Shown: in pieces, positions 5,812-39,320 of the stretch
Layout of the letters: the number at the start of each line of letters is the position of its first letter
How positions within the stretch are numbered: position 1 is the stretch's first letter
Position numbers and translations under genes: made by a program
Notes under the pieces: model-generated
Databases searched by the model: none
The model's input: only the letters and a program-made list of their open reading frames with translations
What the model was told of the DNA's origin: nothing
Source: a virus
Length of the DNA stretch: 64,000 nt
IMG/VR virus record: IMGVR_UViG_3300042375_000684
Reading direction: 5' to 3' (one strand)

Positions 5812-6626
5812 AAGTATTAGTAACTGGTCACAAAGGCTTTATCGGCCAAAATATGTGTAAGGCTATTCTTGCTGAAGGTTGGGAGTTGGAAACTTTTGAT
5901 ATAGTCGATAATCCAACAGCAAGACCAAAAGATCTAAATTATGATGGTGTTAATTGTGTCATGCATTTAGGTGCAATCAGTTCTACAACAGAGACTGATG
6001 TTCATAAAATTATGGACTTGAATTTGTGTTGGTCTATAGAACTATTAGAAGAATGCAGAGAAAGAGGGATTGATATGCAATTTGCATCTTCTGCATCTGT
6101 ATATGGTCAAAATAGAAATGCTAGAATTTTATGTGAAGATGACATTTGCTATCCTGTAAATTATTATGCACTCAGTAAATACATGTTCGAGAAATATGCA
6201 AATAAAAGAACTTATGTTGCATCTACATTACAAATTTTCCGATATTTCAATGTTTATGGTCCGCATGAAGAACACAAAGGATCACAAGCAAGCCCATTTA
6301 CTCAATTTGCTAAACAGGCAAAAGAAAATGGTGTGATTAAAATATTTAAAGGTTCTCGTGAGTTTACACGTGATTTTGTGCATGTAGATACAGTAGTTGC
6401 TGCACACATACGAGCTTTAAGTAAAATAGATCTATTTGCTGGGGGAACCTATAATGTTGGTTCAGGCTATTCAAGAAGTTTTCTTGATGTTGCCAAAGAC
6501 ATTGCCCTCTTGTATAATGCAGAGATAAAAGAAATTCCATTTCCTGAAAATCTTAAAGAACATTATCAGTATCACACCCAAGCAGATATTAGTAAATTAA
6601 ATGATTTATTATTTTATGGATTATAA
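5808..6626 (+). CDS. hldD: ADP-L-glycero-D-manno-heptose 6-epimerase (extended SDR)
   Basis: Motifs VTGHKGFIG, HLGAISSTTETD, ASSASVYG, YALSK, RYFNVYGPHEEHKG and RDFVHV. Confidence 0.85.
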   Translation: MKVLVTGHKGFIGQNMCKAILAEGWELETFDIVDNPTARPKDLNYDGVNCVMHLGAISSTTETDVHKIMDLNLCWSIELLEECRERGIDMQFASSASVYGQNRNARILCEDDICYPVNYYALSKYMFEKYANKRTYVASTLQIFRYFNVYGPHEEHKGSQASPFTQFAKQAKENGVIKIFKGSREFTRDFVHVDTVVAAHIRALSKIDLFAGGTYNVGSGYSRSFLDVAKDIALLYNAEIKEIPFPENLKEHYQYHTQADISKLNDLLFYGL

Positions 6627-6630
6627 TCCA

Positions 6631-6658
6631 ATTATACCATACTTTCAGTCTTTGTCAA
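6631..6658 (-). promoter_or_regulatory. Consensus sigma70 promoter oriented antisense to the heptose cluster
   Basis: The minus strand reads TTGACA-N16-TATAAT with a TG extension (TGGTATAAT). Confidence 0.65.
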
Positions 6659-6681
6659 TGGAATAAATAGACACCTTCTAT

Positions 6682-6689
6682 TATAAATA
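6682..6689 (+). promoter_or_regulatory. T4-type late promoter
   Basis: Intergenic TATAAATA. Confidence 0.8.
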
Positions 6690-6712
6690 GAAATAAAAGA
6701 AGGGTGTGTTCA

Positions 6713-7051
6713 ATGTCAACCAGAGCAAACTTATACGTAGATCAAGGTGTAGATTTTGTTACATCGCTAAATCTTTTCACAGATGTGGGTGATGAATTTG
6801 ATATCACAACGCAAGAATTTTCATGTGATGTTCGTAAAGTATATTCAAGTACTATTATATTTAGTGCTGACATTATGGTAGAACCAGGTAATGTTCCTGG
6901 TTTACTAGAAATGGAATTTTCAGGTATTGTTACTGCTAATACAGATCCAGGTAAATATCAATATGATTTAATAATGACGAGCTCGAGCGGAAAAAGAGAG
7001 AAAATCTTAGAAGGTTTACTATTTCTACTTCCTACAATTACTAGAGGTTAA
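6713..7051 (+). CDS. Small virion structural protein
   Basis: MSTRANLYVDQGVDF and GKYQYDL motifs recall T4-like phage structural proteins. It follows a late promoter. Confidence 0.6.
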   Translation: MSTRANLYVDQGVDFVTSLNLFTDVGDEFDITTQEFSCDVRKVYSSTIIFSADIMVEPGNVPGLLEMEFSGIVTANTDPGKYQYDLIMTSSSGKREKILEGLLFLLPTITRG

Positions 7052-7053
7052 GC

Positions 7054-7287
7054 ATGGCAATTAATGTTACAATTACACCTGCTGCCAATATTGAAGTAAG
7101 AAGAAAATCAAATCCTAGAATCTTAATTAATCAATCAGATTTGTCTATTAAAAATTTAGGCGATATTGCAGATGTAGATTTGACCAATTTAGAAGATGGT
7201 TCTCTTCTAATTTATGATATATTAACACAAAAATTTGTTGCATCAAGACTTCTAGAAAAGCAAGAAATTGACGGTGGTGAGTTTTAA
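7054..7287 (+). CDS. Small tail-associated protein
   Basis: LGDIADVDLTNLEDGSLLIYD and C-terminal IDGGEF motifs occur in phage fibre proteins. Confidence 0.55.
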   Translation: MAINVTITPAANIEVRRKSNPRILINQSDLSIKNLGDIADVDLTNLEDGSLLIYDILTQKFVASRLLEKQEIDGGEF

Positions 7288-7295
7288 TATAAATA
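7288..7295 (+). promoter_or_regulatory. T4-type late promoter
   Basis: TATAAATA directly after the stop codon, followed by an 8-bp hairpin (7303-7331) in the leader. Confidence 0.75.
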
Positions 7296-7359
7296 TCCAT
7301 AATAGTTATGGTAACAAAGTTTTCATAACTAAAAGGTTATTAACACCACGTGAGGATAA

Positions 7360-8985
7360 ATGCCAACAAGAATAAAACTCAAAAGAACTGGTGTCCCCGG
7401 TAGAGTTCCAACTACAAATCAGTTGGCACTTGGAGAGCTTTCAGTTAATACTTATGATGGTAAAATATCTCTCAAGCGCAGACAGGGTGAATTAGAAGAG
7501 ATAGTTAATTTTATCTCTAGCAATCCAGTTGAGAATGTCATATATGTTCAAAAGAATGGAAGTGATGCAAATACTGTTTCTGGATCAACGTGGGATGAAG
7601 CTTATCTTACTATAGAGAGAGCAGTAGATGCTGCTTGGGCACGAGACGGGCTTTTAACACTTATAGATATCGGACCGGGTGAATATGAAACGCGCGGAAA
7701 TATTGATCTTCCTGATGATTGTATTGTAAGAGGTGTTCATAGATCTGTTATTGTTAAGCCAGAAAGTGGTTTTGAAGAAAACAATGTATTTGGATTAGGT
7801 TCAGGTTGTTTTGTCGAAGGAATACTTTTTGAAGGTTGGAGACTTGATGATTTAGATGATCCAACGGTAGGGTTTGCTTTCTGTTTTAGACAAGGCTCTG
7901 TGATAAGAAGAGCCCCTTATGTTCACAAATGTGCTGTAAGAACTAATCCTTATTGGGACAATGTCGCCCCACCACTCGATCGAGAAAATGGAAATCCATT
8001 AGTAGGCCGTGGTGCTGGTGTAGTTATAGCAGATGGGTCTGTGTGTTCACAATACTCAATTTATCCGAATATTATGACATGGGGAGCAACACCTGTAAGT
8101 CACAACGGTATTGGATATGTTGCTAAAAATGGCGCGCTGATAAATGCTGTCAATGCCATAAGTATTTGGGCTCATAAACACTTTTTAGCTTTATCTGGTG
8201 GCCAAATAATACTTTCATCATGTTCTACTCAATTTGGCGATTACACTATGGTTTCAAGTGGAAGTAGAAATATTATAGTACCAACAGAAGTACCTGAAAA
8301 TACTTTAACAATACAAACTACAGCATCAACTGCGATTGATACAGCTACAAGTACCATCATAAATAATATGTGGAATAGTTTAGTAGCACAAAATTATACA
8401 GTTGGTTGGAATGCTGAAGATGAAGCATTCACAAGAAGAGATGCTGCAACACTTTTACAATCTTTAGAATGGGTTCTTCAAACCGCTAATCAAAAACCAA
8501 TGCTCGATTTTGCAAAAGGTTTATTTGATACAAATGGTAATAAAGCATATAATTTAGATAAAGAAGAAGCTTTTATATATTCATTTACGTTTATGCGAGA
8601 TGCAATACTTGCATTACCAAACGTAAATAACAGTGCTGACAGTATAGTATCAGCACTAGTCGCAGCTCTTATTAATACAATCGAAAATCCGGTCACATCA
8701 ATACAACCATCTACTATTACTGCAATTAGTCATACTTGGACTGCTATTATGGCAGGTGTTGCACTTACAAAGATACCACCTGCAAGAAATGAAACTAATA
8801 TTGAAGAAAGTATATTAGAATTAAATAATGGTGTTGTAATAGCATCAGGGCAAGATGATCAAGGCTCTGCACTCTTTATTGGTGGTATGAAGATTGATGC
8901 AGATACTGGTGAATTAACAGGCCCGCCATTTGAACAAGCAGTTAATAGAATAGCAACAAGAACCGCCATCGCAAGGAGCTTTTAA
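7360..8985 (+). CDS. Tail fibre / virion protein with beta-helix-like region
   Basis: N-terminal IKLKRTGVPGRVPTTNQLALGELSVNTYDGK fibre motif, and YVQKNGSD....G.TWDEAYLTIERA typical of pectin-lyase-like folds. Confidence 0.65.
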   Translation: MPTRIKLKRTGVPGRVPTTNQLALGELSVNTYDGKISLKRRQGELEEIVNFISSNPVENVIYVQKNGSDANTVSGSTWDEAYLTIERAVDAAWARDGLLTLIDIGPGEYETRGNIDLPDDCIVRGVHRSVIVKPESGFEENNVFGLGSGCFVEGILFEGWRLDDLDDPTVGFAFCFRQGSVIRRAPYVHKCAVRTNPYWDNVAPPLDRENGNPLVGRGAGVVIADGSVCSQYSIYPNIMTWGATPVSHNGIGYVAKNGALINAVNAISIWAHKHFLALSGGQIILSSCSTQFGDYTMVSSGSRNIIVPTEVPENTLTIQTTASTAIDTATSTIINNMWNSLVAQNYTVGWNAEDEAFTRRDAATLLQSLEWVLQTANQKPMLDFAKGLFDTNGNKAYNLDKEEAFIYSFTFMRDAILALPNVNNSADSIVSALVAALINTIENPVTSIQPSTITAISHTWTAIMAGVALTKIPPARNETNIEESILELNNGVVIASGQDDQGSALFIGGMKIDADTGELTGPPFEQAVNRIATRTAIARSF

Positions 8986-25132: not shown

Positions 25133-26072
25133 AAATCAATTAACAGAAAGAGGCACTTCTGTTGCAATGTTTGATTATGCATATTATGCAAGAGAACTAT
25201 TAGATATAGAACCAATAATTACTTATAGAAATGAAAATAGTAAACCACAAGCAATTCAAAGGTTTAAAAATAATTTTGAAGTATTTTCATATGACACATT
25301 TGATGATGTAGAAACTTACATATCTAAAAATTCAATAGATGCTTTCTATGCTATTAAATATGGATATCATGATGGAATAGTTTCTTCTAATACTAAAAAT
25401 TTAATTCATTCTGTATTCTGCAAACATAGAGAATATATGCACGGTGAAAGATATGCTGTAGTTTCTGAATGGCAATCACATTTTAATGACATACCTTATG
25501 TACCACATATTTTAAATCTTTATGATACCACCGAAACTTTGAGAGATAATCTTAATATACCAAAAGATGCACTGGTAATAGGACGTCATGGTGGTTTTGA
25601 TACATTTAATATTGATTTTGTAATTGATAGCATTAAAGAGATATTAGATAAAAGATCAGATATTTGGTTTTTATTCTTAAATACCGAAAAGAAATTAGAG
25701 CATCAAAGAGTCATATATCTAGATGCAACAGTAGATTTAAAAGAAAAAACAAAATTTATTAACACATGTGACGCAATGATACATGCCAGAGATTACGGTG
25801 AGACCTTCGGTCTTTCAGTTTTAGAATTTGCGGCAAAAGATAAACCTATTATCTCATATGATAATGAATATCTACAGACAAATCACCAATTAGGCGGAAG
25901 AAACCATTTTCTATTTTTACAAGATCATTGTTATAAATATTCACACAAAGGAGATTTAGATAACATATTTCTTAATATTGAAAGAAATACTTCGTTTAAT
26001 ACGAGTTATCTATTGGATAAATTTTCTCCGCAATCTGTAATGAAATTATTTGAAGAAAGATTTTTAGTATGA
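25113..26072 (+). CDS. GT-B (GT4-like) glycosyltransferase
   Basis: Motifs QLTERGTSVAMFDYA and HARDYGETFGLSVLEF. Confidence 0.75.
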   Translation: MKILFHENQLTERGTSVAMFDYAYYARELLDIEPIITYRNENSKPQAIQRFKNNFEVFSYDTFDDVETYISKNSIDAFYAIKYGYHDGIVSSNTKNLIHSVFCKHREYMHGERYAVVSEWQSHFNDIPYVPHILNLYDTTETLRDNLNIPKDALVIGRHGGFDTFNIDFVIDSIKEILDKRSDIWFLFLNTEKKLEHQRVIYLDATVDLKEKTKFINTCDAMIHARDYGETFGLSVLEFAAKDKPIISYDNEYLQTNHQLGGRNHFLFLQDHCYKYSHKGDLDNIFLNIERNTSFNTSYLLDKFSPQSVMKLFEERFLV

Positions 26073-26689
26073 GTCAATATCCAAATTTACAAATAGATAG
26101 CCCTATTGAGACATATGAAATTATGACTCAACACATAAAGACACTGAAAGGTGTTGAGGGACTAAGCTGTGAAGTAGGACTTCGCCGAGGCGGGGGAACT
26201 AAAGTAATACTCGATTCATTTATGGAAAATGAAGATAAACGTGTTCATATCTGCATGGACCCATATGGAAATATTATTTACAATGATATAGTAGGTCCAC
26301 ATCGAAGTGACTATACAGATGATATGAAAAATGAGACACTTGCAGAACTATACCGATATGCATTTGATAATAGAATTAATATTCTTTTCTTTAATATGGA
26401 AGACTCTGAATTTTATAGAAGATTTACAGATGGTGTTCCTGTTTACGATCAAGAAAAGAAAATGCTGAATACATATTGTTTTGTCCATATTGACGGTCAG
26501 CATGATATAGAATCAGTCAGATTAGCCGCAAATTTCTTTATTCCAAGAATGTCAATTAGAGGGCTTCTTGTTTTTGATAACACTGATCATTATGATCATT
26601 CACCTATACACAATTTAATGCTTAATAACAAGTTTATTATGGTTGACGATGTATTGAATAGAAAACTATATAAGAGAGTTTTGATATGA
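26069..26689 (+). CDS. SAM-dependent O-methyltransferase (TylF/Methyltransf_24-like)
   Basis: Motifs CEVGLRRGGGT, FVHIDGQH and LVFDN. Confidence 0.7.
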   Translation: MSQYPNLQIDSPIETYEIMTQHIKTLKGVEGLSCEVGLRRGGGTKVILDSFMENEDKRVHICMDPYGNIIYNDIVGPHRSDYTDDMKNETLAELYRYAFDNRINILFFNMEDSEFYRRFTDGVPVYDQEKKMLNTYCFVHIDGQHDIESVRLAANFFIPRMSIRGLLVFDNTDHYDHSPIHNLMLNNKFIMVDDVLNRKLYKRVLI

Positions 26690-27939
26690 TAGAAGATTTA
26701 CTTAATCAATTTGCTTTAAATCCAAATGATCCAGAGATTAATTTTAAAATGGCAAGATACTATGATGAAATAGGTCAGACTGCATCTGCTGTTTCCTATT
26801 ATATTAGAACAGCTGAAAGAACAGAAGATCTTCTTCTGCGATATGAATGTCTATTGCATGGTGCAAATTGCTTTGAGCGACAAGGTACTCGTAGATTTAC
26901 TGTAAAAGGTATGCTTCAACAGGCAATTACTATTTTACCGAAAAGACCTGAGGCATATTATATATTAAGTAGACTATATGAATACAATGATACAAATGAG
27001 GGTAGATACTTAGACTCATATACAATGTGTTCTATAGCACTTCAAGTTTGTGATTTTAATAATAAAGAATTGAGAGTACCAGTAAATTATCCAGGTAAAT
27101 ATGCTCTATTATTTCAAAAGGGCGTAATGGGTTGGTGGAATGGTTTACAAGAAGAAACAAAATCAATTCTTTTGGATCTTCATATGAATTGGGACATGAA
27201 TGATGAATTTGCAAATTCAGTTAAGAATAATTTAGTAAATATGAATGCATTTGCTTCCAAATCATTGACAACATACTCTAAATCTAAATTATATAAATTG
27301 CGCTGGAAATTTGAAAGTCTTGAAGATATAGAACAGAATTATTCTGAAGCATATCAAGATATGTTTGTTCTTACTGTATTAAATGGTAAAAAGAATGGAA
27401 CATATGTAGAAATTGGATCAGGTCATCCTACATATGGAAATAATAGTTATCTATTGGAAAAAGATTTTGGCTGGACTGGAATGTCAGTTGATATAAGTGA
27501 AGAATTTATAGCAAAACATAATGCAGAAAGAAAACATACAGCAATATTAAAAGATGCAACAACAATAAATTATGGTACTTATTTTAAGTCACTCGGTTTT
27601 GGTACTGAAATAGATTACTTACAGATTGATGTTGATCCAGCTGAAATATCACTGAAAGTTCTTTACACAATCCCGTTTGAAACTTACAAGTTTTCAGTAA
27701 TTACGTTCGAACACGACCATTACGCAGACCCAAAAAGTAATGTCAGAGAAAAGGCAAGACAATTCTTAGAATCATTTGGTTATGTTCTTGCGGTGTCAAA
27801 TATCTCACCAGATGAAAATAGACCATATGAAGATTGGTTTGTACATAGAGATGAATATGAAAAAGTAAAACATCTAGTTGATACTTCAGATAAAACAAAA
27901 TGTGCAGAAAACTTTATGTTTGGTGCCTATAATGAATAA
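26686..27939 (+). CDS. TPR protein fused to an FkbM-like methyltransferase domain
   Basis: TPR-like N-terminus (PKRPEAYY). C-terminal YSEAYQDMFVL..GTYVEIGS..IDYLQIDVD..VITFEH. Confidence 0.7.
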   Translation: MIEDLLNQFALNPNDPEINFKMARYYDEIGQTASAVSYYIRTAERTEDLLLRYECLLHGANCFERQGTRRFTVKGMLQQAITILPKRPEAYYILSRLYEYNDTNEGRYLDSYTMCSIALQVCDFNNKELRVPVNYPGKYALLFQKGVMGWWNGLQEETKSILLDLHMNWDMNDEFANSVKNNLVNMNAFASKSLTTYSKSKLYKLRWKFESLEDIEQNYSEAYQDMFVLTVLNGKKNGTYVEIGSGHPTYGNNSYLLEKDFGWTGMSVDISEEFIAKHNAERKHTAILKDATTINYGTYFKSLGFGTEIDYLQIDVDPAEISLKVLYTIPFETYKFSVITFEHDHYADPKSNVREKARQFLESFGYVLAVSNISPDENRPYEDWFVHRDEYEKVKHLVDTSDKTKCAENFMFGAYNE

Positions 27940-28717
27940 GATACCTGTGATAGGAGCTGCTGTTGTAAATAGCAGTTTCTGGGTTTCAAGATTACTTTTA
28001 AGTGTTGACTATCCAGTGGAAAATTTTGTAATTATAAACAATAATGGACGTGGTATTATTGATGAAGAATTAAACAATATAGTCAAGTTAAAGCACCGCT
28101 ATATAGATAAAATAAAAGTAGTTCATATGCCTGCTAATATAGGATGTGCAGGTGCTTGGAATTTAATTATTAAGTGTTATATGAATGCAGCATATTGGAT
28201 AATTGCTAATGATGATGTTGCTTTTAAACCAGGATTATTAAAAGAATTTAATGATATCATGATAAATGATTCAGAAATTGGAACAATACATCCAAACCCT
28301 GGTGATTTTGAAATTGGTGCGTGGGATTTATTTGCAATACACGAAAGAGCAGTCAAGAAACTAGGGTTATTTGACGAAAATACATATCCCGCATATTGTG
28401 AAGATGCAGATTATATTATGAAAATGGTGAACAAAGGTGTCAAGAAAATTGTAGGATTACAATCAGGTTATTTACATGGTACTGGAGATGCCGAAGCATA
28501 CTATGAACATGGAAGACAAACTGAAAAATCTGACGAGAATTTAGCACAAATATTACAAATTTCTAATGCACTTAATATAGAATATCTTACCCGCAAATGG
28601 GGTCCTGGTTGGAGAACTGTATGTCCACATGTACTACCCTTTGCTGGAGAAGAACGAGATATTAGTTATTCACTATATGATCTCGAATTTGTCAGAAGAA
28701 AACATACAGGATTTTAA
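27932..28717 (+). CDS. GT2-like glycosyltransferase
   Basis: Motifs IINNNG, NIGCAGAWN, IANDDV and FDEN.YPAYCEDADY. Confidence 0.75.
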   Translation: MNKIPVIGAAVVNSSFWVSRLLLSVDYPVENFVIINNNGRGIIDEELNNIVKLKHRYIDKIKVVHMPANIGCAGAWNLIIKCYMNAAYWIIANDDVAFKPGLLKEFNDIMINDSEIGTIHPNPGDFEIGAWDLFAIHERAVKKLGLFDENTYPAYCEDADYIMKMVNKGVKKIVGLQSGYLHGTGDAEAYYEHGRQTEKSDENLAQILQISNALNIEYLTRKWGPGWRTVCPHVLPFAGEERDISYSLYDLEFVRRKHTGF

Positions 28718-28718
28718 A

Positions 28719-29456
28719 ATGTTACCAATTTCAGTAGGAATACTTTCGTGGAACTCACCTGAAGTTCTAGAAGAGACAATAAAAACTTATATAATGAATG
28801 GACTTTTTAATCTAGTTTCAGATATAACAATTCTATTTCAAGAAGTTACTAAAGAGGATAAAGCACTTGCTAAAAAATATGGCATTCCTTTCATTGGTTT
28901 AGATACAAATGTAGGCATTGGTAAAGCAATGCAAATACTAGCCGAACAAGCAACAGAAGAATATTTTCTATTTCTTGAAAATGATTGGCAATTAATTGAA
29001 ACTAAAGAAACTACAAAGAAAAGATTAATTGGATCCATAGATCTTTTAGAAGAAGATTATCAGTGCATAAGACTAAGATCTAGACGAACACCTGGATATC
29101 CTTTATTTTCAGAAGTTTATAGGGATAATGAATTAAATCATTACGATGAAAATACTGGTTTAATTTCTCCGCATCTCTTTGATTGTATTCATTGGATTGA
29201 AGAACCTGATCTAAAATTTGAGCAAATTAGAAAGCATAAATATCACTACATTACAACATCGCGTTGGTCTAATTGGACCAATAATCCGTGTTTATTCAAG
29301 ACAGAATTTATTCCAGATATTATTGATCCATTTATCCAAGATAATCTTCTTGAACCATCAATTTCAAGATGGTGGGCAGAACAGAATTTTAATGTTGCAT
29401 GGGGTGAAGGTTTATTTAAACATGTTGATTTTAAGAAATATGGAGATATATATTAA
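28719..29456 (+). CDS. GT-A fold glycosyltransferase-like protein
   Basis: Motifs ISVGILSW, NVGIGKA, FLFLENDW and WTNNPC. Confidence 0.6.
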   Translation: MLPISVGILSWNSPEVLEETIKTYIMNGLFNLVSDITILFQEVTKEDKALAKKYGIPFIGLDTNVGIGKAMQILAEQATEEYFLFLENDWQLIETKETTKKRLIGSIDLLEEDYQCIRLRSRRTPGYPLFSEVYRDNELNHYDENTGLISPHLFDCIHWIEEPDLKFEQIRKHKYHYITTSRWSNWTNNPCLFKTEFIPDIIDPFIQDNLLEPSISRWWAEQNFNVAWGEGLFKHVDFKKYGDIY

Positions 29457-30232
29457 TGCATAAAGTAATTCTTGTAACTGGTGGTTTCGATCCTCTACAT
29501 AGTGGACATATTGCATATTTTGAAGAAGCAAAGAAATTAGGTAATACATTGGTAGTCGGTGTCAATAGCGATGAATGGTTATCTCGTAAAAAAGGCCAAC
29601 CATTTATGGATGTGAATGAGAGAATGTCAATCATAAAACATCTATCCATGGTAGACGCTGCTATTATATTTGATGATTCTGATGGGACTGCAAAAGCAGC
29701 AATAAGATATTGTTTAAATGCATATCCAGAGTCCGAAATTATCTTTGCAAATGGTGGTGATAGAACAAAAGCAAATATACCTGAAATGGAACTTGTTTGT
29801 GATGATTCCGAAACAAAGAGACTAAAATATGTTTTTGGTATCGGTGGAACACATAAAATGAATTCCAGTAGTAAAATACTGACCGAATGGAAGACACCAA
29901 AAACAGAACGAAAGTGGGGTTATTATAGAGTATTACACTCTGATGGACCATCACTCAAAGTCAAAGAGTTAGTTGTGGAACCCGGGAAATCATTGAGTGT
30001 TCAGAAACACAATCTAAGAAGTGAACATTGGATAGTTTCTGAAGGTATTGCGACAGTAAATTATGGTGACCATCCCGCCGCTCTTTCAACTACAAAATTG
30101 GAAAAACACGATGAGATTCATATCTCAGTTGGCAAATGGCATCAACTTGTAAATGAGACGAACAATGAAGTCCGAATTGTTGAAATCCAATTCGGAGTTA
30201 ATTGTATCGAGGAAGATATTATTCGGATTTGA
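29456..30232 (+). CDS. Cytidylyltransferase-like nucleotidyltransferase fused to a mannose-6-phosphate-isomerase-type cupin
   Basis: TGGFDPLHSGH, VGVNSD and FANGGDR, then ERKWGYY..LSVQKH..RSEHW. Confidence 0.85.
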   Translation: MHKVILVTGGFDPLHSGHIAYFEEAKKLGNTLVVGVNSDEWLSRKKGQPFMDVNERMSIIKHLSMVDAAIIFDDSDGTAKAAIRYCLNAYPESEIIFANGGDRTKANIPEMELVCDDSETKRLKYVFGIGGTHKMNSSSKILTEWKTPKTERKWGYYRVLHSDGPSLKVKELVVEPGKSLSVQKHNLRSEHWIVSEGIATVNYGDHPAALSTTKLEKHDEIHISVGKWHQLVNETNNEVRIVEIQFGVNCIEEDIIRI

Positions 30233-30262
30233 TTCTGTTTTATTTTCATGGATGATAATCCA

Positions 30263-30290
30263 ATTATACCATACATGTAGAACCTGTCAA
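30263..30290 (-). promoter_or_regulatory. Consensus sigma70 promoter oriented antisense to the second glyco cluster
   Basis: The minus strand reads TTGACA-N16-TATAAT with a TG extension. It shares 20 identical bp with the site at 6623-6642. Confidence 0.65.
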
Positions 30291-30311
30291 CCAAAAGTGT
30301 CGTTCATTAAG

Positions 30312-30319
30312 TATAAATA
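30312..30319 (+). promoter_or_regulatory. T4-type late promoter
   Basis: TATAAATA upstream of gp13. Confidence 0.85.
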
Positions 30320-30349
30320 GAAAAAACTTACACATCATTAGGTGATAAA

Positions 30350-31102
30350 ATGGCTCAACCAAGAACTAGAAGAGATTTTAAAGAGTATTGCCTAAGAAAA
30401 TTAGGCCACCCGGTTATTCAGATAAATGTGTCAGATGAACAAATTGATGATCGTGTAGAAGAAGCATTATCGTTCTGGCAAGATTATCACTACAATGGTT
30501 CCGATCTTGTTTACCTTAGACACATGTTGACTCAAGGAGAAATAGATCAAGGTTATGTGGATTTAAATAACACTGAATATGCTAATTTACTTGGTGTTGT
30601 TCGCATTTTTGATCTATATTCATCTATTTCAACTGGTACTGGCATGTTTAACGTGCAATACCAATTTGTTCTAAATAACTTGCAGGATCTTACAGGTTAC
30701 TCTATTCAAAACTATTATATGACTATGCAGCATATCCGTTTTATCCAAGAATGGCTTGTTGGTTTACCTTTAATTAGATATAACAAGCATACTAATAAAC
30801 TTTACATTGATCAGAGTAAAGCAAAATTAACCCCTGGCTATTATGTTATTATTGAAGCGTATGCACCTATTGATGATGCAAATCCAGATATTTGGAGTGA
30901 TAGGTTTCTTCAAAATTATACAACTGCACTTATTAAAGAACAGTGGGGTTCAAATCTTACCAAGTTCGTGAATATGCAACTTGTTGGTGGCATCCAATTC
31001 AACGGCGAACAAATACTTGCTGATGGAAGAGATGAACGCAAGGCTATGGAAGAAGAAGCAAAAAGTTCTCTACAACCACTTACTTACAATTTCTCTGGAT
31101 AA
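30350..31102 (+). CDS. gp13: Neck protein gp13
   Basis: KEYCLRKLGHPVIQINV..QIDDRVEEAL and LIKEQWGSNLTKF..QLVGGIQFNG; T4 synteny. Confidence 0.92.
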   Translation: MAQPRTRRDFKEYCLRKLGHPVIQINVSDEQIDDRVEEALSFWQDYHYNGSDLVYLRHMLTQGEIDQGYVDLNNTEYANLLGVVRIFDLYSSISTGTGMFNVQYQFVLNNLQDLTGYSIQNYYMTMQHIRFIQEWLVGLPLIRYNKHTNKLYIDQSKAKLTPGYYVIIEAYAPIDDANPDIWSDRFLQNYTTALIKEQWGSNLTKFVNMQLVGGIQFNGEQILADGRDERKAMEEEAKSSLQPLTYNFSG

Positions 31103-31105
31103 TAA

Positions 31106-31786
31106 ATGGCAAACTATAGTCACATACCATATACTTACATGATAGGTTGGTCCAAACAAAAAAAATATTATTACGGTGTGCAATTCGGTAAAAATGCAAA
31201 CCCAAATAATTTATGGAAAACTTATTTTACATCTTCTAACAATGTAAAAAAGTTTATAGAAAATTATGGTGATCCAGATATAATAGAAATACGAAAAACT
31301 TTTTTGACCCCGTGCAAAGCTAGAGCATGGGAAACTAAAGTGATTCAACGAATGAATTTAGTTGAAAATCAAAATTGGTTAAATAAAACAGATAACACAT
31401 CAAAATTTTATTTTGAAGGTCCTCGAGGCCCCAGAAGTAAAGAGCACACTGAAAAACTTAGAAAATCTCATATTGGTAAAAAAATAACAGCCGAACACAA
31501 AGAAAAGCTTCATACTGGAAGAAGAAATTCAAAAAACACTCCAGAACACACTGCAGCTATACTTAAAGCAGTTAAAGGGAAGAAACATACCGAAAAATCC
31601 AGAAAAAATATGGCTGATGCTTATGCAAAAAGAGATATCGAAGAAGTTAAAAATAATGCTAGTAATGCTGGAAAGAAAAGTGCCGCGTTATACAAGAATG
31701 ATCCAGAAAGACAAGCTGCACATAGTGAAAGAATGAAAATGTGGTGGGCAGCGCGCGGACAACTTCTATCTATGGAAGGACAATAA
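31106..31786 (+). mobile_element. Free-standing GIY-YIG (Seg-like) homing endonuclease with NUMOD3-type repeats
   Basis: PYTY.IGW....YYYG...TYFTSS..ARAWE, followed by basic H..EH.EKL repeats. It is inserted between gp13 and gp14. Confidence 0.75.
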
Positions 31787-31787
31787 A

Positions 31788-32528
31788 ATTTCTACAAATG
31801 TATTTTTCCAGAACTATAACTATTTCAATGAGCAACAACTCATTGATGATCTAGTTATAGAGTCAATCCAGATCTTTGGCGTTGATACATATTATGTGTC
31901 AAGAACGTCATCAGCGTTTGATCATATAATGAATGAAGATAGGCTTACAGTTTTTGATGCTGCATATCAAATGGATATGTATGTTAAGACAGTTGATGGA
32001 TTCCAAGGTCAAGGTGACTTCCTTTCTAAATTTGGTCTGGAAATTCGTGACCAGGTTACATTCACTGTTGCATATAGAACATTCGAGAGATTTGCAACAA
32101 AAGATAATCCTGCATTAATAAGACCAAAAGAAGGCGATTTGGTCTACATGCCTATGAACAATAAGTTCTTTAAGGTTATGTTTGTAGAACACGAATCAGT
32201 ATTCTATCAGGCTGGAGCATTACAGGTTTATGATCTTAAATGTGAACTATTTGAATATTCCAATGAGAGATTTGAAACTGGTGTTGATGATGTTGATAAA
32301 CATTATGTTGATTTTAAAACAACCGAAATTAACAATCTTGAAGATATGTTTGCAGCAGACCCAATTGCTAAAAATATCTTCTATGAAGAAAAAGGTAATG
32401 ATATTATAGACTTTACCGAAATTGATCCATTCAGCGAGACAATATTCCCACCATCGAACTATTTTGTAACAGCAGATTCAACTAAGGTAACCGCCGACGA
32501 CGGTGGCATTACTGCAGATACTATATAA
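31788..32528 (+). CDS. gp14: Neck protein gp14 (probable AUU start)
   Basis: The frame reads (I)STNVFFQNYNYFNEQQLIDDLVIESIQIFGVD...DFLSKFGLEIRD..RPKEGDL. SD GGAAGGA lies 7 nt before ATT, and no in-frame ATG/GTG precedes the conserved N-terminus. Confidence 0.85.
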   Translation: MSTNVFFQNYNYFNEQQLIDDLVIESIQIFGVDTYYVSRTSSAFDHIMNEDRLTVFDAAYQMDMYVKTVDGFQGQGDFLSKFGLEIRDQVTFTVAYRTFERFATKDNPALIRPKEGDLVYMPMNNKFFKVMFVEHESVFYQAGALQVYDLKCELFEYSNERFETGVDDVDKHYVDFKTTEINNLEDMFAADPIAKNIFYEEKGNDIIDFTEIDPFSETIFPPSNYFVTADSTKVTADDGGITADTI

Positions 32529-32537
32529 GAGGAACAA

Positions 32538-33890
32538 ATGGCTAAACAAACCATCAATATAGGAACTACGGCCAATGACCGTACCGGTGATCCTTTAAGA
32601 ACCGCATTTACTAAAACAAATAGTAACTTTACTGAACTATATGCAAATGTCGCAACATTGAATAGTTCTGTAGTCACTGATGTTTCGGATTTAACTGATA
32701 CTGAAGGATTATTTTTCTCTGGTGATTATAGAGATCTTTCCAATACCCCATTTATCGGTACAGATGTTTCAGATTTAACTGATACTGAAGGGTTACTTTT
32801 CTCCGGCGACTATGATGATCTTTTCAATACTCCATTTATTGCAACTGATATATTAGATTTAACAGATAATAATAATCTATTAACTGTAAAAGATCATATT
32901 GAGTTAACTGGTATATATCAAACATCCAATAACATCATTTCATTTACAAAAGCACCAAATACAGATTCAAATACAGTCTTTGATACGATATCTGAATATG
33001 TAATTCTTACAAGAGATGCATCTGGTATTGGTGGTCTGGGCGGCGGCATCTATAATAGTGCATTCGAAGTAGCCTATGATGTTGCCATAAGCCCAATATC
33101 AACAATATGGAATGCAGATGGCTGGGATGATGTATCAGATATTGAAACAAGATATTATCAAACTTTCAGACAGGCACTTCGCAATAGCGTAGGTGCAAAT
33201 ATTGTTGGTGCTGAACTTATTATGAAGGATACAGCAAGTAACGAATATTACAAGATTAAATTTTCTCAATGGGCACAGGGTGCTAGTCACGACGGCAGTT
33301 TTGCATATACAAGAGAGAAAATAGATACTACTACACCTATCGGAATTACATTCTATGATGGATCTACATTACCGAAAGCACCAAATACAAAACCAAAATT
33401 TGAACAATCATATGTAGGTGATTTTGGAGGATATGGCCTAACTATTTCACAAGCTGGTAGACAAGTTTATATTTATGATAATATTGTAGAAATTCCTAGT
33501 TACAATGAGCAAAACTTTAAAATTGGTGATGTAATTCAAATTATTACTGGTGGCTTTGCATCAACTATAAGACCTAAAGTAAATGACGATATCGAATTAC
33601 CAGATGCTACTCTCTATATTCAAGGTGAAACAAATTCTGTAGCATCTTTTGATATACCAGCAAGATCTATGGCTTTTCTTAGTAAAATTGCTCAAAATAT
33701 TTGGCAACTTTCTATAAGTAATTCTTCAGTTATAAAAAATGATTTAGCACCAAACACAAGCATAGGTGATAGCACAGATGTAGAAGGTATAGTTGCGTTT
33801 GATTCTACTTATTTCTATTACTGTACTTCAGACTATACCGGATCTGATAATATTTGGAAACGAATTGCTTGGAGCAATGATACCTGGTAA
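32538..33890 (+). CDS. Virion protein with gp9/gp10-type N-terminus
   Basis: MAKQTINIGTTANDRTGDPLRTAFTKTNSNFTELY, plus an internal 28-aa tandem repeat. Confidence 0.65.
   Translation: MAKQTINIGTTANDRTGDPLRTAFTKTNSNFTELYANVATLNSSVVTDVSDLTDTEGLFFSGDYRDLSNTPFIGTDVSDLTDTEGLLFSGDYDDLFNTPFIATDILDLTDNNNLLTVKDHIELTGIYQTSNNIISFTKAPNTDSNTVFDTISEYVILTRDASGIGGLGGGIYNSAFEVAYDVAISPISTIWNADGWDDVSDIETRYYQTFRQALRNSVGANIVGAELIMKDTASNEYYKIKFSQWAQGASHDGSFAYTREKIDTTTPIGITFYDGSTLPKAPNTKPKFEQSYVGDFGGYGLTISQAGRQVYIYDNIVEIPSYNEQNFKIGDVIQIITGGFASTIRPKVNDDIELPDATLYIQGETNSVASFDIPARSMAFLSKIAQNIWQLSISNSSVIKNDLAPNTSIGDSTDVEGIVAFDSTYFYYCTSDYTGSDNIWKRIAWSNDTW
32676..32870 (+). repeat. 84-bp in-frame tandem repeat, about 2.3 copies (TDVSDLTDTEGLxFSGDYxDLxNTPFIx)
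   Basis: Visible at both DNA and protein level. Confidence 0.85.
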
Positions 33891-33900
33891 GGAACTTTAA

Positions 33901-34716
33901 ATGGCTTTTGTAAATTATTTTTATAATGCAACTACTAAAAAATACATAGCTCTTTTCGGAACTATGTTTAATAAAATTTCTATTGCACGTGATGATCCAA
34001 ATACTGGTGATGAAGTACAGCGTATGGTTGTGCCTATTTCATATGGCCCTTATCAAAAATTTCTTGCAAGAGTAAATCAAGATCCAGACTTAAATAGAAA
34101 AACTGCCATCACACTTCCTAGAATGGCTTTCGAGATAACAGGAATGGAATATGATGGTTCAAGGAAAGTTAATTCTGTAAGAAGAATTTCTGGTCAAACA
34201 CACAGTGATGATAAAAAAACATTTCAGTATGTTGGAACACCTTATAATCTGAATTTTACGCTTAGTATTATGACTAAGTATGCTGAAGATGGAACACAAA
34301 TATTAGAACAAATAATCCCTTTCTTTAAACCCGAATGGACTTACACTGTAAAGTTAATTGATAATCTTGATCCAATAGATATTCCACTAATTCTAAATTC
34401 CGTGAACATGGAAGATCTGTATGAGGCAGACTTTGAAACTAGAAGAAGTCTCTTATGGACTATTACATTTACAATGAAGGCTTGGTATTTTGGTCCACAG
34501 AGAGAAGGTAGTGTAATAAAGTTTATTGATATCAGATCGCACACCAAAATTGACACAACCGCAACACCAGAAGGTCAAATTACAATACAGCCTGGTTTAA
34601 CTGCAAATGGGCAACCAACAACATCACTTGATGAAACACTTGATTATGAACTTATTAATATTGATGATGATTGGGGAATAATTACAATTTTTAGAGATGA
34701 GATTGAGGTAACATAA
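33901..34716 (+). CDS. gp15: Tail sheath stabiliser / tail terminator gp15
   Basis: FYNATTKKYIALFGTMFN, VPISYGPYQKFL, TLPRMAFE and QILEQIIPFFKPE. Confidence 0.92.
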   Translation: MAFVNYFYNATTKKYIALFGTMFNKISIARDDPNTGDEVQRMVVPISYGPYQKFLARVNQDPDLNRKTAITLPRMAFEITGMEYDGSRKVNSVRRISGQTHSDDKKTFQYVGTPYNLNFTLSIMTKYAEDGTQILEQIIPFFKPEWTYTVKLIDNLDPIDIPLILNSVNMEDLYEADFETRRSLLWTITFTMKAWYFGPQREGSVIKFIDIRSHTKIDTTATPEGQITIQPGLTANGQPTTSLDETLDYELINIDDDWGIITIFRDEIEVT

Positions 34717-35159
34717 TGAGTGATGATAAGATTGCAAATGCACTGGGTTTGAAGCCTCTAGCTGAAGTTTTAGATGCGACTGTAGAACCTTCAACTGAAC
34801 TTGCATTAGCAGATCCGGTTGAAATTGTCACTGTCATTGCAGAAGATAATGAAACTGTGAGAGATATTGAACAGGCAAGAGGTAATATAAAGAATATCAT
34901 TGAGCAAGGTGATGATGCACTTAAGGAAATGATGTCTCTTGCAAAACAATCCGAGAGTCCAAGGGCATTTGAAGTTGCTTCAACTTTGATGAAAACACTT
35001 TTGGATGCAAACAAAGACTTTGTTGAAATGTCTATGAAGAAAAAGTATGCAGTGGATGAAGTCAATGGACCAAAAGAAGCTGCTCAGACTAATGTGACAA
35101 ATAATAACTTGATTGTATCCACTGCGGATCTATTGAAAATGCTCAAAGGAGAAACTTGA
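34716..35159 (+). CDS. gp16: Terminase small subunit gp16
   Basis: DIEQARGNI, SESPRAFEVASTLMKTL and NNLIVSTADLLKML. Confidence 0.9.
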   Translation: MSDDKIANALGLKPLAEVLDATVEPSTELALADPVEIVTVIAEDNETVRDIEQARGNIKNIIEQGDDALKEMMSLAKQSESPRAFEVASTLMKTLLDANKDFVEMSMKKKYAVDEVNGPKEAAQTNVTNNNLIVSTADLLKMLKGET

Positions 35160-35755
35160 TAATGACACCTGAAATGATTGAAGATTATAAAAGATGTATG
35201 GGTGATATTGAATACTTTGCTGAAAAACATATTAAAGTAAGACATGTAGAATTAGGTTTAGTACCTCTGAAATTAAACGAATTTCAAAGACAAGCTATTA
35301 AAGATTATAGCGAAAAGAATGTTTTTGCAAAATACGCAAATAGAATGGAAGGTAAAACTACTATTGCCGCTATTATTCTTTTACACCATGCAATCTTTAA
35401 TCAATATAGAGTAAGTCTTATTATGGGTCCAAAGATGCAATCAAGTAATGAAGTGTTGGATCTAATTTATGATATGCACCAAAATCTTCCAGAACACATC
35501 CAAGCAAAAATTGTTACACATAATAAAACAAAACTAGAATTTGATAATATGTGTGCTATTATAAGTGGAGGCAGCAATACTCATCAAGGTAGAGGTAGAA
35601 CACTATCAAATATCTATATTGATGAAAGTGAATTTATGAATACTCTTGATGAAGTTTTTACTAATTTATATCCTTGTATCTCAACAGCAAATAAAGGTAA
35701 ACTTTTTGCATTCACTTCAACTAGAACTTCAGAATATTTTAGAGATCATAAATGA
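35156..35755 (+). CDS. Stand-alone paralogue of the terminase large-subunit ATPase domain
   Basis: Aligns by eye to gp17 residues ~22-210, with RMEGKTT (Walker A), IYIDE (Walker B) and TST (coupling motif). It has no nuclease domain. Confidence 0.8.
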   Translation: MIMTPEMIEDYKRCMGDIEYFAEKHIKVRHVELGLVPLKLNEFQRQAIKDYSEKNVFAKYANRMEGKTTIAAIILLHHAIFNQYRVSLIMGPKMQSSNEVLDLIYDMHQNLPEHIQAKIVTHNKTKLEFDNMCAIISGGSNTHQGRGRTLSNIYIDESEFMNTLDEVFTNLYPCISTANKGKLFAFTSTRTSEYFRDHK

Positions 35756-37377
35756 CAGATTCTGGCGGCTACTTAGGTAATTCACTTCTTAAAAAATCTG
35801 GTACTCCAATTGAATGGACTCCAGAAATGCTCAAGGAGTATATGAAATGTGCGGAAGATCCGATCTATTTTGCTGAACGGTATATTAAAATTGTTCACGT
35901 TGATCACGGGTTTATTCCAATTAAGTTATATGATTATCAAAAAGACATTATCAATGCAATTAGTAATAATAGACGAGTTGTAGCAAATACTTCTCGTCAG
36001 GCAGGTAAAACAACTACCGCTATGGCTATTATTTTGCACTATATATTGTTTAACGAATATAAAACTGTTGCACTTCTCGCCAATAAAGCAGCATCTGCTC
36101 TTGAAATTCTTAATCGCATCCAGATGGCATTCGAAGCATTACCTGGTTGGTTACAGCAAGGTGTTATCACTTGGAATAAAGGTTCTATGGAATTAGAAAA
36201 TGGTTGTAAGGTTATTGCCGCTGCATCATCTTCAAGTTCCATTCGTGGTAAATCTATCGCATTCCTATATATCGACGAAACTGCCTTCTTAAATAATTGG
36301 GAAGAGTTTTTTGCGTCCGTTTATCCTACCATTTCATCTGGTAAAGAAACAAAAATTCTATTGACATCCACTCCGAACTCTTTGAATCACTTCTGGAAAA
36401 TCTGTAAAGAGGCACAAGAAGAAATTGATGAAAGAGGCAGGGGCAAAAACGGTTATATCTATATTGAAGTTACTTGGGATAAAGTTCCAGGCAGAGATGA
36501 AGCATGGAAAGAAGATACACTTGCTTCTATTAGTTGGAATATGGAACAGTTTCAACAAGAATTTTGTGGATCATTCATCGGAAGTTCCAGCACTCTTATC
36601 TCCGGAAGTAAACTGAAAGAACTTTCATTCTCCACACCTTTGCATGAAGGTGAGGGAATTAAACAATATGCAACAGCAGTCAAGGGACATGCATATGCCA
36701 TGGTTGTTGACGTTTCAAGAGGCAAGGGCCTTGACTATTCTACATTCTCTGTTCTTGATATTACAACAATGCCGTATCAACAGGTTTGTACATTCAGAGA
36801 TAACTACATTGGCCCCGTAGATTACGCCAGCATTATCTACAGAATAGCAAAATTGTATAATGAGTCATCCGTATTAATTGAAATAAATGATATTGGTGGT
36901 CAAGTAGCTGACGTTCTCTACTTTGATTATGGTTACGAAAATATGCTATTTACTGAAAGTGCTGGTAGATCCGGAAAACGAATTTCAGGCGGTTTTGGTA
37001 AAAATATTGATAGAGGTATTAGAACAACAAAAACTGTAAAATCAATTGGTTGTTCCATATTGAAATTACTAGTAGAACAAAATCAAATACTGCTTAATGA
37101 CTTTGAAACTATACAAGAATTGGCCAGATTTGCTCGTAGAGGTCCTTCATACGAGGCAGAATCTGGCGCACATGATGATATGGTTATGACATTGGTACTT
37201 TTTGCTTGGTTAACTGACCAAACATTCTTTAAAGACATGACAGACATAAATACACTTGCAAAACTTCGTGAAAGAACAGAAGAAGAAATAGATGATTTTC
37301 TATTACCTTTTGGTTTTTATGATAATGGAAGTGATGACATTGAGCAGCCTATTTACATGAATCCAAATAATTGGTAA
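35752..37377 (+). CDS. gp17: Terminase large subunit gp17
   Basis: SRQAGKTT, LYIDETAF, TSTPN, VDVSRGKGLDYS and HDDMVM. Confidence 0.97.
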   Translation: MTDSGGYLGNSLLKKSGTPIEWTPEMLKEYMKCAEDPIYFAERYIKIVHVDHGFIPIKLYDYQKDIINAISNNRRVVANTSRQAGKTTTAMAIILHYILFNEYKTVALLANKAASALEILNRIQMAFEALPGWLQQGVITWNKGSMELENGCKVIAAASSSSSIRGKSIAFLYIDETAFLNNWEEFFASVYPTISSGKETKILLTSTPNSLNHFWKICKEAQEEIDERGRGKNGYIYIEVTWDKVPGRDEAWKEDTLASISWNMEQFQQEFCGSFIGSSSTLISGSKLKELSFSTPLHEGEGIKQYATAVKGHAYAMVVDVSRGKGLDYSTFSVLDITTMPYQQVCTFRDNYIGPVDYASIIYRIAKLYNESSVLIEINDIGGQVADVLYFDYGYENMLFTESAGRSGKRISGGFGKNIDRGIRTTKTVKSIGCSILKLLVEQNQILLNDFETIQELARFARRGPSYEAESGAHDDMVMTLVLFAWLTDQTFFKDMTDINTLAKLRERTEEEIDDFLLPFGFYDNGSDDIEQPIYMNPNNW

Positions 37378-37391
37378 CAAAACATCAAGTT

Positions 37392-37399
37392 TATAAATA
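37392..37399 (+). promoter_or_regulatory. T4-type late promoter
   Basis: TATAAATA upstream of gp18. Confidence 0.85.
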
Positions 37400-37451
37400 G
37401 AATTGAGATTTGAATTAAGAATAATCTTATTTTATAACAAAGGAGAAAAAT

Positions 37452-39320
37452 ATGGTTTTTTCTGTAAGCCCATCCGTAACAGTCCGTGAGGTTGATGCTA
37501 CAGCAACAATTCCAGCGATCGCAACTCCTCCTGCTGCAATCGCTGGTGTTTTTAGCTGGGGACCAACTAACGAAAGAATTCTAGTAACTTCTGAAAACGA
37601 GTTAGTTTCTCGTTTTGGGAAACCTACGGATTCTAACTTTGAAACATTCTTTACTGCAGCCGACTTTTTGTCGTATTCAAATGCACTATACGTTACTCGT
37701 GTAACAAGTGATGATGCTGCAATCGCGTCCGGCACATATTTTAATGCAAAACACCCAGGTGCATTAGGTAATTCCGTTGAAGTAGCATATGTAACAAGTT
37801 CCAGTGCATATGGCAATACTGCATTATTTGATACAGACCTAATTGAAAATGTAGATAATTCTGATATTATTGCTATTGGCACAAATACATTACAAATTAT
37901 CACAACAGAAAATGTTTCTGGTATTCTTTCTAATGGTGATATTATTGTAGTAGGTAATAATGATGTTGGTTATCAAAACCTAATAGTTAATACGTATACT
38001 GTTGCATCAGTAGTAGATACAGCAAACACAGCAAACACAGCAGACGATATTACAACATATACTTATACTATAAATCTAAAAAATAGATATTCACTACCAG
38101 TAACATCTTATCTTGATCTAACATATAAGAGATATTGGGGTCTTTCATATTTATTTAGTAATGCACCAACATCAGGTAATATGCACATTGTGGTTACAGA
38201 TAGAGATGGTGATATTACTGGTGTGGCAGATACTATTCTTGAAGTGTATGAAAACGTGTCAAAGACACCATCTGCAAAACTTCAGGATGGGACAACAAAT
38301 TATTATGCAACAGTAATTGAAAACAAATCTGCTTGGATTATTGCTGATAGTACCGATAAATTAGATGGATCTGGAAATCTTTCTGGATATGAAAATCTGG
38401 CTGGAGGTCTCAATGGATCTAATGAGGCATCAATACCGTTTGGTAAAGTTGCACTTGGTTATGATCTTTATAAAGACTCTGCAGATGTTGATATTGCTTT
38501 TGTTCTTCAAGGTAAAGCAGTAAATGCAAATATTTCAAACTATATTGTTCAAAATATTGCCGAAAGAAGAAAAGATTGTGTTGCATTCATTTCACCTACT
38601 GCTGCAGCTGCCGTAGCACCATCTAATCCGATAGATAAGATGAATGCAGTTATTGCATTCAGATCACTTGTTCAAAATTCATCTTACTTCTTCATGGACT
38701 CCGGCTATAAATACCGTTATGATAAGTATAATGACGTATATCGTTGGGTACCATTAAATGGAGATATGGCAGGTCTTTGCTCTCGTATCACTCCATGGGA
38801 ATCACCAGCTGGTTATAAGCGTGGTATCATCAAGAATGTTGTAAAACTTGCTTTTAATCCAAATAAAGAACAACGTGATCAACTATACGGAAATGATATC
38901 AATCCAGTTGTTTCTCAAGTAGGTCAAGGTATCCTTCTATTCGGTGATAAGACTGGTCTTGGAACTGCTACAGGTAGTGCATTCACTCGTATTAACGTGC
39001 GCCGTCTATTCATTACAGTCGAAAAGGCAATTGCAACAACTGCTGCTTCATTCCTATTCGACTTCAATGATGAGTTCACTCAGACACAGTTTAGAAACTC
39101 AGTAGAACCATTCCTAAGAGATATCCAGGGAAGAAGAGGTATCATAGACTTTAGAGTAATTTCCGATTCTACTGTAAATACTCCTGATGTTATTGATAGA
39201 AATACATTTAGAGGAAATATTTTCATCAAACCTAGTAGAACCATTAACTTTATCGAACTTACATTTGTCGCTACTAGAACAGGTGTTGAATTTGATGAAA
39301 TTATCGGCCAGGCTCTTTAA
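37452..39320 (+). CDS. gp18: Tail sheath protein gp18
   Basis: SPSVTVREVD, WGP, YKYRYDKYND..RWVPLNGD.AGL, PWESPAG and RINVRRLF. Confidence 0.97.
   Translation: MVFSVSPSVTVREVDATATIPAIATPPAAIAGVFSWGPTNERILVTSENELVSRFGKPTDSNFETFFTAADFLSYSNALYVTRVTSDDAAIASGTYFNAKHPGALGNSVEVAYVTSSSAYGNTALFDTDLIENVDNSDIIAIGTNTLQIITTENVSGILSNGDIIVVGNNDVGYQNLIVNTYTVASVVDTANTANTADDITTYTYTINLKNRYSLPVTSYLDLTYKRYWGLSYLFSNAPTSGNMHIVVTDRDGDITGVADTILEVYENVSKTPSAKLQDGTTNYYATVIENKSAWIIADSTDKLDGSGNLSGYENLAGGLNGSNEASIPFGKVALGYDLYKDSADVDIAFVLQGKAVNANISNYIVQNIAERRKDCVAFISPTAAAAVAPSNPIDKMNAVIAFRSLVQNSSYFFMDSGYKYRYDKYNDVYRWVPLNGDMAGLCSRITPWESPAGYKRGIIKNVVKLAFNPNKEQRDQLYGNDINPVVSQVGQGILLFGDKTGLGTATGSAFTRINVRRLFITVEKAIATTAASFLFDFNDEFTQTQFRNSVEPFLRDIQGRRGIIDFRVISDSTVNTPDVIDRNTFRGNIFIKPSRTINFIELTFVATRTGVEFDEIIGQAL

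Follow-up and report, generated by a model that had tools for sequence, protein, structure and literature searches.

Few phage proteins are as conserved as the large terminases, which are targets of several bacterial immune sensors. The closest described counterparts of the gene analyzed here occur in the cultured Sinorhizobium phages phiM12, phiN3, phiM7, and phiM19 (genus Emdodecavirus), where a gene encoding 194 to 196 aa lies between gp16 and gp17 with overlapping junctions. The GenBank record of phiM12 already names this gene "gp17.2," and annotations of the phiM12 type have existed since about 2014; the phiM12 product (YP_009143010.1) is annotated only as terminase large subunit. No functional study of gp17.2, or of truncated or second terminase copies, was found in the searchable literature.

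Three further systems invite comparison: the small terminase subunits, the ATPase domain of T4 gp17, and the T4 protein vs.8. Lambda gpNu1 has a low-affinity ATPase. In T4 gp17, subdomain II of the ATPase domain (NsubII) bears the portal-binding helix-turn-helix. The ATP of T4 gp17 sits in the cleft between subdomain I (NsubI) and NsubII, and T4 gp16 both binds nucleotide and sets gp17 specificity through its C-terminal domain (PMC9958956). T4 vs.8 (NP_049732.1), a stand-alone terminase-like ATPase, is reportedly toxic together with EcAvs2 (PMC13601566).

The window, by which we mean the whole stretch of 64,000 nucleotides analyzed here, comes from a T4-like phage of lake water. Its terminase genes and their neighbors are arranged as follows.

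33901 to 34716, plus strand: gp15, part of a T4-type late structural block.
34716 to 35159, plus strand: gp16, small terminase, 147 aa (Pfam PF11053, 1.7e-7; phrog_445, 2.5e-26).
35146 to 35151, plus strand: AAGGAG, Shine-Dalgarno sequence for gp17.2 by reading of the sequence, within the 3' end of gp16 and 10 nt 5' of the ATG at 35162.
35162 to 35755, plus strand: gp17.2, stand-alone ATPase-core (NsubI) large-terminase paralogue, 197 aa (BLASTP, Pfam, profile, AlphaFold2, and Foldseek).
35752 to 37377, plus strand: gp17, complete large terminase, 541 aa (Terminase_6N, 2.9e-24; Terminase_6C, 1.9e-5).
37452 to 39320, plus strand: gp18, part of the T4-type late structural block.

The gp16 stop codon (TGA, 35157 to 35159) is followed by 2 nt and then by the gp17.2 ATG, and the gp17 ATG overlaps the gp17.2 stop as ATGA (35752 to 35755). 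The original prediction had described a 199-aa open reading frame joined by ATGA to both neighbors. The reading frame is real on the plus strand and the ATGA on the gp17 side stands, but a 199-aa product needs a TTG start at 35156, with which the gp16 junction would read TTGA. The ATG at 35162, giving 197 aa, is the likelier start, because AAGGAG lies 10 nt upstream of it and because the closest homologue (P0002) starts with identical residues. A fusion of gp17.2 to gp17 by -1 frameshifting is ruled out by a TAA in the gp17 frame at 35749 to 35751, just before the gp17 ATG, and a search among longer proteins revealed no fusions of gp17.2 to gp16 or gp17, which is weak evidence against them.

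In line with the original prediction, gp17.2 is a diverged duplicate of the N-terminal ATPase of gp17. It is 36% identical to residues 22 to 210 of the downstream gp17 over 190 residues (BLASTP; E value, 8e-44), a profile of its family matches residues 101 to 288 of T4 gp17 (E value, 8e-42), and within PHROGs it falls in large-terminase families (phrog_5989, 3.5e-39). Net charge and pI differ little between gp17.2 and the matching gp17 region. By Pfam, gp17.2 contains Terminase_6N only, whereas gp17 contains both Terminase_6N and Terminase_6C; gp17 is therefore complete rather than one part of a split gene, and gp17.2 has no nuclease domain, both as had been claimed. An AlphaFold2 model of gp17.2, for which an alignment of 61 sequences served as input, reached a pLDDT of 89 and a pTM of 0.88, and Foldseek superimposed all 197 of its residues on the ATPase domain of T4 gp17 (2o0j/2o0h) with a TM score of 0.89 and an rmsd of 2.2 Å. 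As modeled, gp17.2 is thus an ATPase subdomain I of the gp17 type.

The protein begins with the helices that precede the adenine-binding motif and ends ten residues after the C-motif; in the model, the C-motif strand is followed by one short helix and nothing else. ATPase subdomain II (the lid or lever; T4 residues 1 to 58 and 314 to 360) is absent, the alignment stopping at T4 residues 288 to 296, and the 197 aa contain no Terminase_6C match that would indicate the C-terminal RNase H-like nuclease/translocase domain. Compared with T4 gp17, residues 1 to 100 and everything past about residue 296 (NsubII and the nuclease/translocase) are missing. Since subdomain II is the other side of the T4 ATP cleft, the nucleotide site of gp17.2 would be only half built.

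Within this core, the catalytic motifs were located at the following positions.

35282 to 35287, plus strand: adenine-binding motif F41-Q42 (T4 Y142-Q143); Q42 aligns to T4 Q143 and is invariant in 61 members.
35336 to 35359, plus strand: Walker A/P-loop, A59 to T66, with the cis arginine R61 (T4 R162) and K65 (T4 K166); G64 is invariant.
35609 to 35626, plus strand: Walker B and catalytic carboxylate, N150 to E155 (T4 D255 and E256); Y152, D154, and E155 are invariant in 61 members.
35714 to 35722, plus strand: ATPase-coupling C-motif TST (T4 285-TTT-287); T/S-S-T/S in most members, with the end of the protein 10 residues on.

The motifs quoted in the original prediction, namely, Walker A (N60 to T67), Walker B with the catalytic glutamate (I151 to E155), and TST (residues 185 to 187), are all found in the reading frame, so that gp17.2 keeps the Walker A, Walker B, catalytic Glu, and C-motif of a TerL N-terminal ASCE ATPase core. 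It shares with the T4 gp17 ATPase domain (PDB 2O0H/2O0J and 3CPE) the fold, the adenine Gln, Walker A with the cis Arg, Walker B, the Glu, and the C-motif. Across the 61 family members, Q42, G64, Y152, D154, and E155 show no variation, and Walker A shows almost none; R61 and K65 occur in 90% or more. Judged by sequence, gp17.2 retains all the cis residues that an ATPase active site needs, and activity itself is predicted. Several residues that are invariant in gp17 (T4 Q163, K192, R202, and W221) are not kept; the T4 R202 equivalent is Arg in 17 of 17 gp17 sequences and hydrophobic in all gp17.2 sequences. Loss of a trans arginine finger was considered and is unsupported, as a basic residue, mostly Lys, occupies the T4 R154 position in 62 of 63 members.

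The window gene has the features of the phiM12-type family, that is, NsubI homology from start to stop in a protein of about 190 to 210 aa, encoded between gp16 and a complete gp17, with all three genes on one strand and tightly joined. Like the window gene, the phiM12-type genes are homologous to the gp17 N-terminal ATPase, and they belong to the same clade; unlike this shared position and ancestry, their sequences have drifted far, being 28 to 30% identical to that of the window gene, below the identity of either to gp17. The window gene is therefore a further member of an annotated, uncharacterized kind. T4 vs.8 resembles gp17.2 in being a separate protein of similar size (about 200 aa) from a T4-type phage; it carries Walker A and B motifs like those of terminases and lacks a nuclease domain. 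In contrast to gp17.2, it lies between vs.7 and denV, outside the terminase operon and on the strand opposite genes 16 and 17. Orthology of gp17.2 and vs.8 was rejected (BLASTP E value, 11; hhalign probability, 2%), nothing being shared beyond the Walker motifs. Because of this lack of detectable similarity and the different locus, vs.8 appears to be an independent derivative, much older or more diverged.

The family is widespread. A word-indexed search returned 60 gp17.2 homologues with identities between 40 and 100%; they are 193 to 207 aa long, except for one fragment of 110 aa. In an exhaustive profile search of 1.84 billion representative proteins (clusters at 50% identity), 31 proteins of 178 to 246 aa ranked above every full-length terminase, and about 20 further short proteins starting at residue 1 to 5 followed at lower ranks. 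Altogether the family comprises about 50 clusters at 50% identity, with proteins of about 200 aa that match end to end. A second terminase match is found in at most 19 of 2,447 phage records, and a metagenome scan for further carriers yielded 4 loci, none of them close.

Gene order was compared in 12 carrier loci, 10 of them metagenomic and 2 from the Sinorhizobium phages phiM12 and phiN3. The order gp15-gp16-gp17.2-gp17-gp18 is complete in 6 IMG/VR contigs (L002 and L004 to L008), and contigs cut short (L003 and L020 to L022) show the same gp15-to-gp18 order as far as each reaches. gp17.2 lies directly upstream of gp17 in all 10 metagenomic loci and is preceded by gp16 wherever the contig reaches. 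In every carrier locus its junctions are overlapping, abutting, or tight, and its reading frame is intact (12 of 12). The closest cultured relative of the window gp17 is that of phiM12 and phiN3, at 58% identity. gp17.2 is absent from Pseudoalteromonas phage XG4, Rhizobium phage RHph_I1_18, Caulobacter phage Cr30, Melnitz, Mosig, S-SKS1, T4, and locus L009.

In other T4-like phages, the junction of gp16 and gp17 is a hot spot for cargo genes. Unrelated cargo occupies it in Cr30, Melnitz, Mosig, and S-SKS1 (loci L014 to L017): a 677-aa F5/8 type C domain protein in Melnitz, a 69-aa open reading frame in Mosig, three open reading frames in Cr30, and four in S-SKS1.

Two loci showed other arrangements of terminase genes. 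A short metagenome contig (L023, positions 207 to 1447) encodes a 293-aa ATPase-only terminase paralogue (Terminase_6N, 2e-9) that is 27% identical to gp17 and 31% identical to gp17.2, with the start of a gp17-like gene directly after it; this may be a more diverged or an independent version of the gp17.2-gp17 arrangement. On a 283-kb IMG/VR contig (L006, positions 4594 to 7375), gp17 is divided into two open reading frames (4594 to 5475 and 6227 to 7375) with gp17.2 intact upstream. A free-standing GIY-YIG endonuclease gene (5527 to 6246) lies between the two pieces, and the second piece carries a weak N-terminal intein-splicing match (PF14890, 6.4e-6, below the Pfam cutoff). The arrangement resembles a "fractured gene" in which a split intein is combined with a homing endonuclease.

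The origin of the gene was examined with a quick tree in which 39 gp17.2 sequences were combined with the N-terminal regions of 17 gp17 proteins. All 39 gp17.2 sequences, including those of phiM12 and phiN3, form one clade that excludes every gp17 (SH-aLRT, 98), on long branches for which long-branch attraction is possible. The neighbors of this clade are the gp17 sequences of the carrier phages and of their nearest noncarrier relatives, and trees of gp17.2 and of gp17 from 11 loci with both genes agree in their major clades. With one gp17.2 clade whose major subdivisions match those of gp17, these trees fit an old event in which the 5' part of gene 17 was duplicated once in tandem and was then coinherited with gp17. 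The ancestor in which this happened would be one that the phiM12-like phages share with a large, uncultured clade of T4-like phages from aquatic habitats. The original description of the gene as "inserted" between gp16 and gp17 is misleading in this respect, the tree fitting a duplication in place.

We next consider how the gene has changed since. Pairwise NG86 estimates gave a dN/dS of 0.21 to 0.35 for gp17.2 in six informative pairs (dS is saturated in several pairs), indicating purifying selection. The window stretch recurs all but unchanged in 24 metagenome runs of lake water (2020 to 2025), and contigs from 4 of these 24 runs are near-identical to it, with zero indels in gp17.2. A gene confined to one isolate and decaying neutrally is thus ruled out: gp17.2 is widespread, under purifying selection, and present in all 24 runs. 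By sequence, it is a real protein-coding gene, and the reading of it as a recent duplicate in decay or an artifact of gene calling, to which its shortness relative to gp17 might point, is so improbable as to be effectively refuted by conservation, given some 50 diverged clusters of the same length, the low dN/dS, the invariant catalytic residues, a frame intact in 12 carrier loci and in contigs from 4 lake runs, and a confidently modeled fold (pLDDT, 89).

The gene has nevertheless diverged far faster than its parent, with tree paths that exceed those of the matching gp17 region 4- to 65-fold in length. Between the window and L002, gp17.2 is 63% identical in amino acid sequence, compared with 97% for the matching gp17 region, and dN is 0.293 compared with 0.018. 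Between phiM12 and phiN3, gp17.2 is 82.5% identical, compared with 100% for gp15 and gp16, and its dS is 0.47, compared with 0.05 to 0.10 in the flanks. Sliding-window identity for this pair is 97 to 100% in gp15, gp16, and most of gp17 and falls to 74 to 96% only inside gp17.2. Since the raised dS is confined to one gene, the pattern points to replacement of the gp17.2 allele by recombination and not merely to relaxed constraint. Inside gp17.2, Logan contigs from two independent lake runs (X15 and X19) break off at 35365, and the sequence is picked up again at 35462 or 35507. These breaks (35365 to 35507) hint at strain-level microdiversity within the gene.

The transcription context was assessed from T4-type late promoter boxes, two of which flank the block on the plus strand.

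30312 to 30319, plus strand: late promoter box TATAAATA, the last T4-type box upstream of the gp13-gp17 block.
37392 to 37399, plus strand: late promoter box TATAAATA, the next T4-type box, ahead of gp18.

These are the only plus-strand TATAAATA sites within 25939 to 38706. With no box between 30319 and 37392, gp16, gp17.2, and gp17 seemingly lie in one late unit, which suggests a single long late transcript from gp13 to gp17. Late coexpression of gp17.2 with gp17 is likewise suggested by the strong Shine-Dalgarno sequence, the ATGA overlap, and the lack of an intervening late promoter. The whole window contains 14 TATAAATA boxes, compared with 8.1 expected, and 13 of the 14 are on the plus strand. 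Upstream of gp17.2, the last approximately 20 residues of gp16 (35078 to 35156) are almost invariant in 9 phages, whereas gp16 is otherwise 49 to 86% identical. Given this near invariance and the role of the T4 gp16 C-terminal domain, these residues are a candidate terminase-binding peptide.

For the expression, ATPase activity, partner, and packaging role of gp17.2, we infer the following. Our preferred reading, held tentatively and with slightly less than even confidence, is that gp17.2 serves the terminase holoenzyme as a late accessory or regulatory ATPase that depends on a partner. It would be made late, translationally coupled with gp16 and gp17, and would bind ATP through its conserved cis residues, with hydrolysis probable. 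A second protein would complete the half-open nucleotide cleft, and gp17.2 may act, e.g., at packaging initiation or in the control of gp17. It presumably cannot be a motor subunit, because it lacks subdomain II and the nuclease/translocase domain. The functional analogy that we favor is with the regulatory nucleotide sites of lambda gpNu1 and T4 gp16, which like gp17.2 in this role would represent a second nucleotide-dependent component modulating initiation or the nuclease; unlike gp17.2, these sites belong to the small subunit and to folds other than the TerL-derived ASCE type. Adjacency to gp17 is weak evidence for a packaging role, because the tandem-duplication origin and the unrelated cargo at the junction explain the position. 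Three observations sit uneasily with an accessory ATPase: change that is 4- to 65-fold faster is odd for a stoichiometric part of a very conserved machine, the R202-equivalent Arg that is invariant in gp17 is hydrophobic in gp17.2, and most T4-like phages package DNA without gp17.2.

The speed and confinement of that change lead to the main rival of the accessory ATPase, in which gp17.2 is an immune-interface protein: a sponge, a nonproductive decoy, or a gp17 shield against Avs1-3 or Upx sensors, diversifying in an arms race. EcAvs2 and Upx are triggered by the terminase ATPase domain alone, contacting its active site and bound ATP (PMC13601566, 2026), which makes gp17.2 a plausible ligand, and a mimic would likewise have to retain the active-site residues. 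The divergence and allele exchange confined to gp17.2, between phiM12 and phiN3 and between the window and L002, resemble an arms race. The original prediction had offered a regulator, a spacer subunit, a dominant-negative timer, and an Avs decoy as candidate roles; of these, the decoy gains from such fast change within one gene. However, in the published assays isolated ATPase domains and vs.8 activate sensors of this kind and do not block them, so that an extra core would look like a liability (PMC13601566), and the overall dN/dS of gp17.2 is well below 1. By analogy with these sensors, we regard the immune interface as possible but unlikely. Much the same standing is given to the broader proposal that gp17.2 serves specifically to engage host immunity or rival phages, as a diversifying and exchangeable mimic of the ATPase core that would mislead or titrate Avs1-3 or Upx or poison the motors of coinfecting relatives; we consider this, too, a minority possibility.

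A third reading takes gp17.2 to be an ATPase with a late nonpackaging function that lies beside gp17 merely by birthplace. The duplication accounts for its position, other T4-like phages accommodate unrelated cargo at the junction, and a fast-evolving surface around fixed catalytic residues would suit a different task. Yet no domain or motif points to another substrate, and translational coupling to gp16 and gp17 is found in 12 of 12 carrier loci; we judge this reading improbable. Competition between phages, a purely inferential proposal, fares little better and strikes us as quite improbable. Here gp17.2 would join or cap the terminase of coinfecting relatives as a dominant negative while sparing its own matched gp17. 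An ATPase core kept without its NsubII lid and nuclease is what a ring poison might look like, and the fast, gene-confined evolution with allele exchange among close relatives would fit as well. Against this, gp17.2 would be made together with its own terminase, at the risk of self-poisoning, and a simple cap has no need of invariant catalytic residues.

Returning to the accessory ATPase and its main rival, the finding common to both is that a whole T4-like clade keeps, beside the motor gene, a lidless and by sequence catalytically intact copy of the terminase ATPase core, and that this copy is a local hot spot of divergence and allele exchange. Its members range from phiM12, a cultured and genetically tractable phage that infects Sinorhizobium meliloti, to some 50 clusters known from metagenomes. 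Judged by the searchable literature, four points are new: the extent of the family, its origin in what looks like a single event, its independence from vs.8, and the pairing of an invariant catalytic core with allele exchange and very fast divergence confined to the gene. If gp17.2 is an accessory ATPase, it would be an unrecognized optional component of T4-type packaging. If it is instead an interface with Avs or Upx, it would represent a new type of counterdefense, linking to the observation on T4 vs.8, and should the mimic reading be true, it would be the first known phage countermeasure made from a copy of the sensed protein itself.
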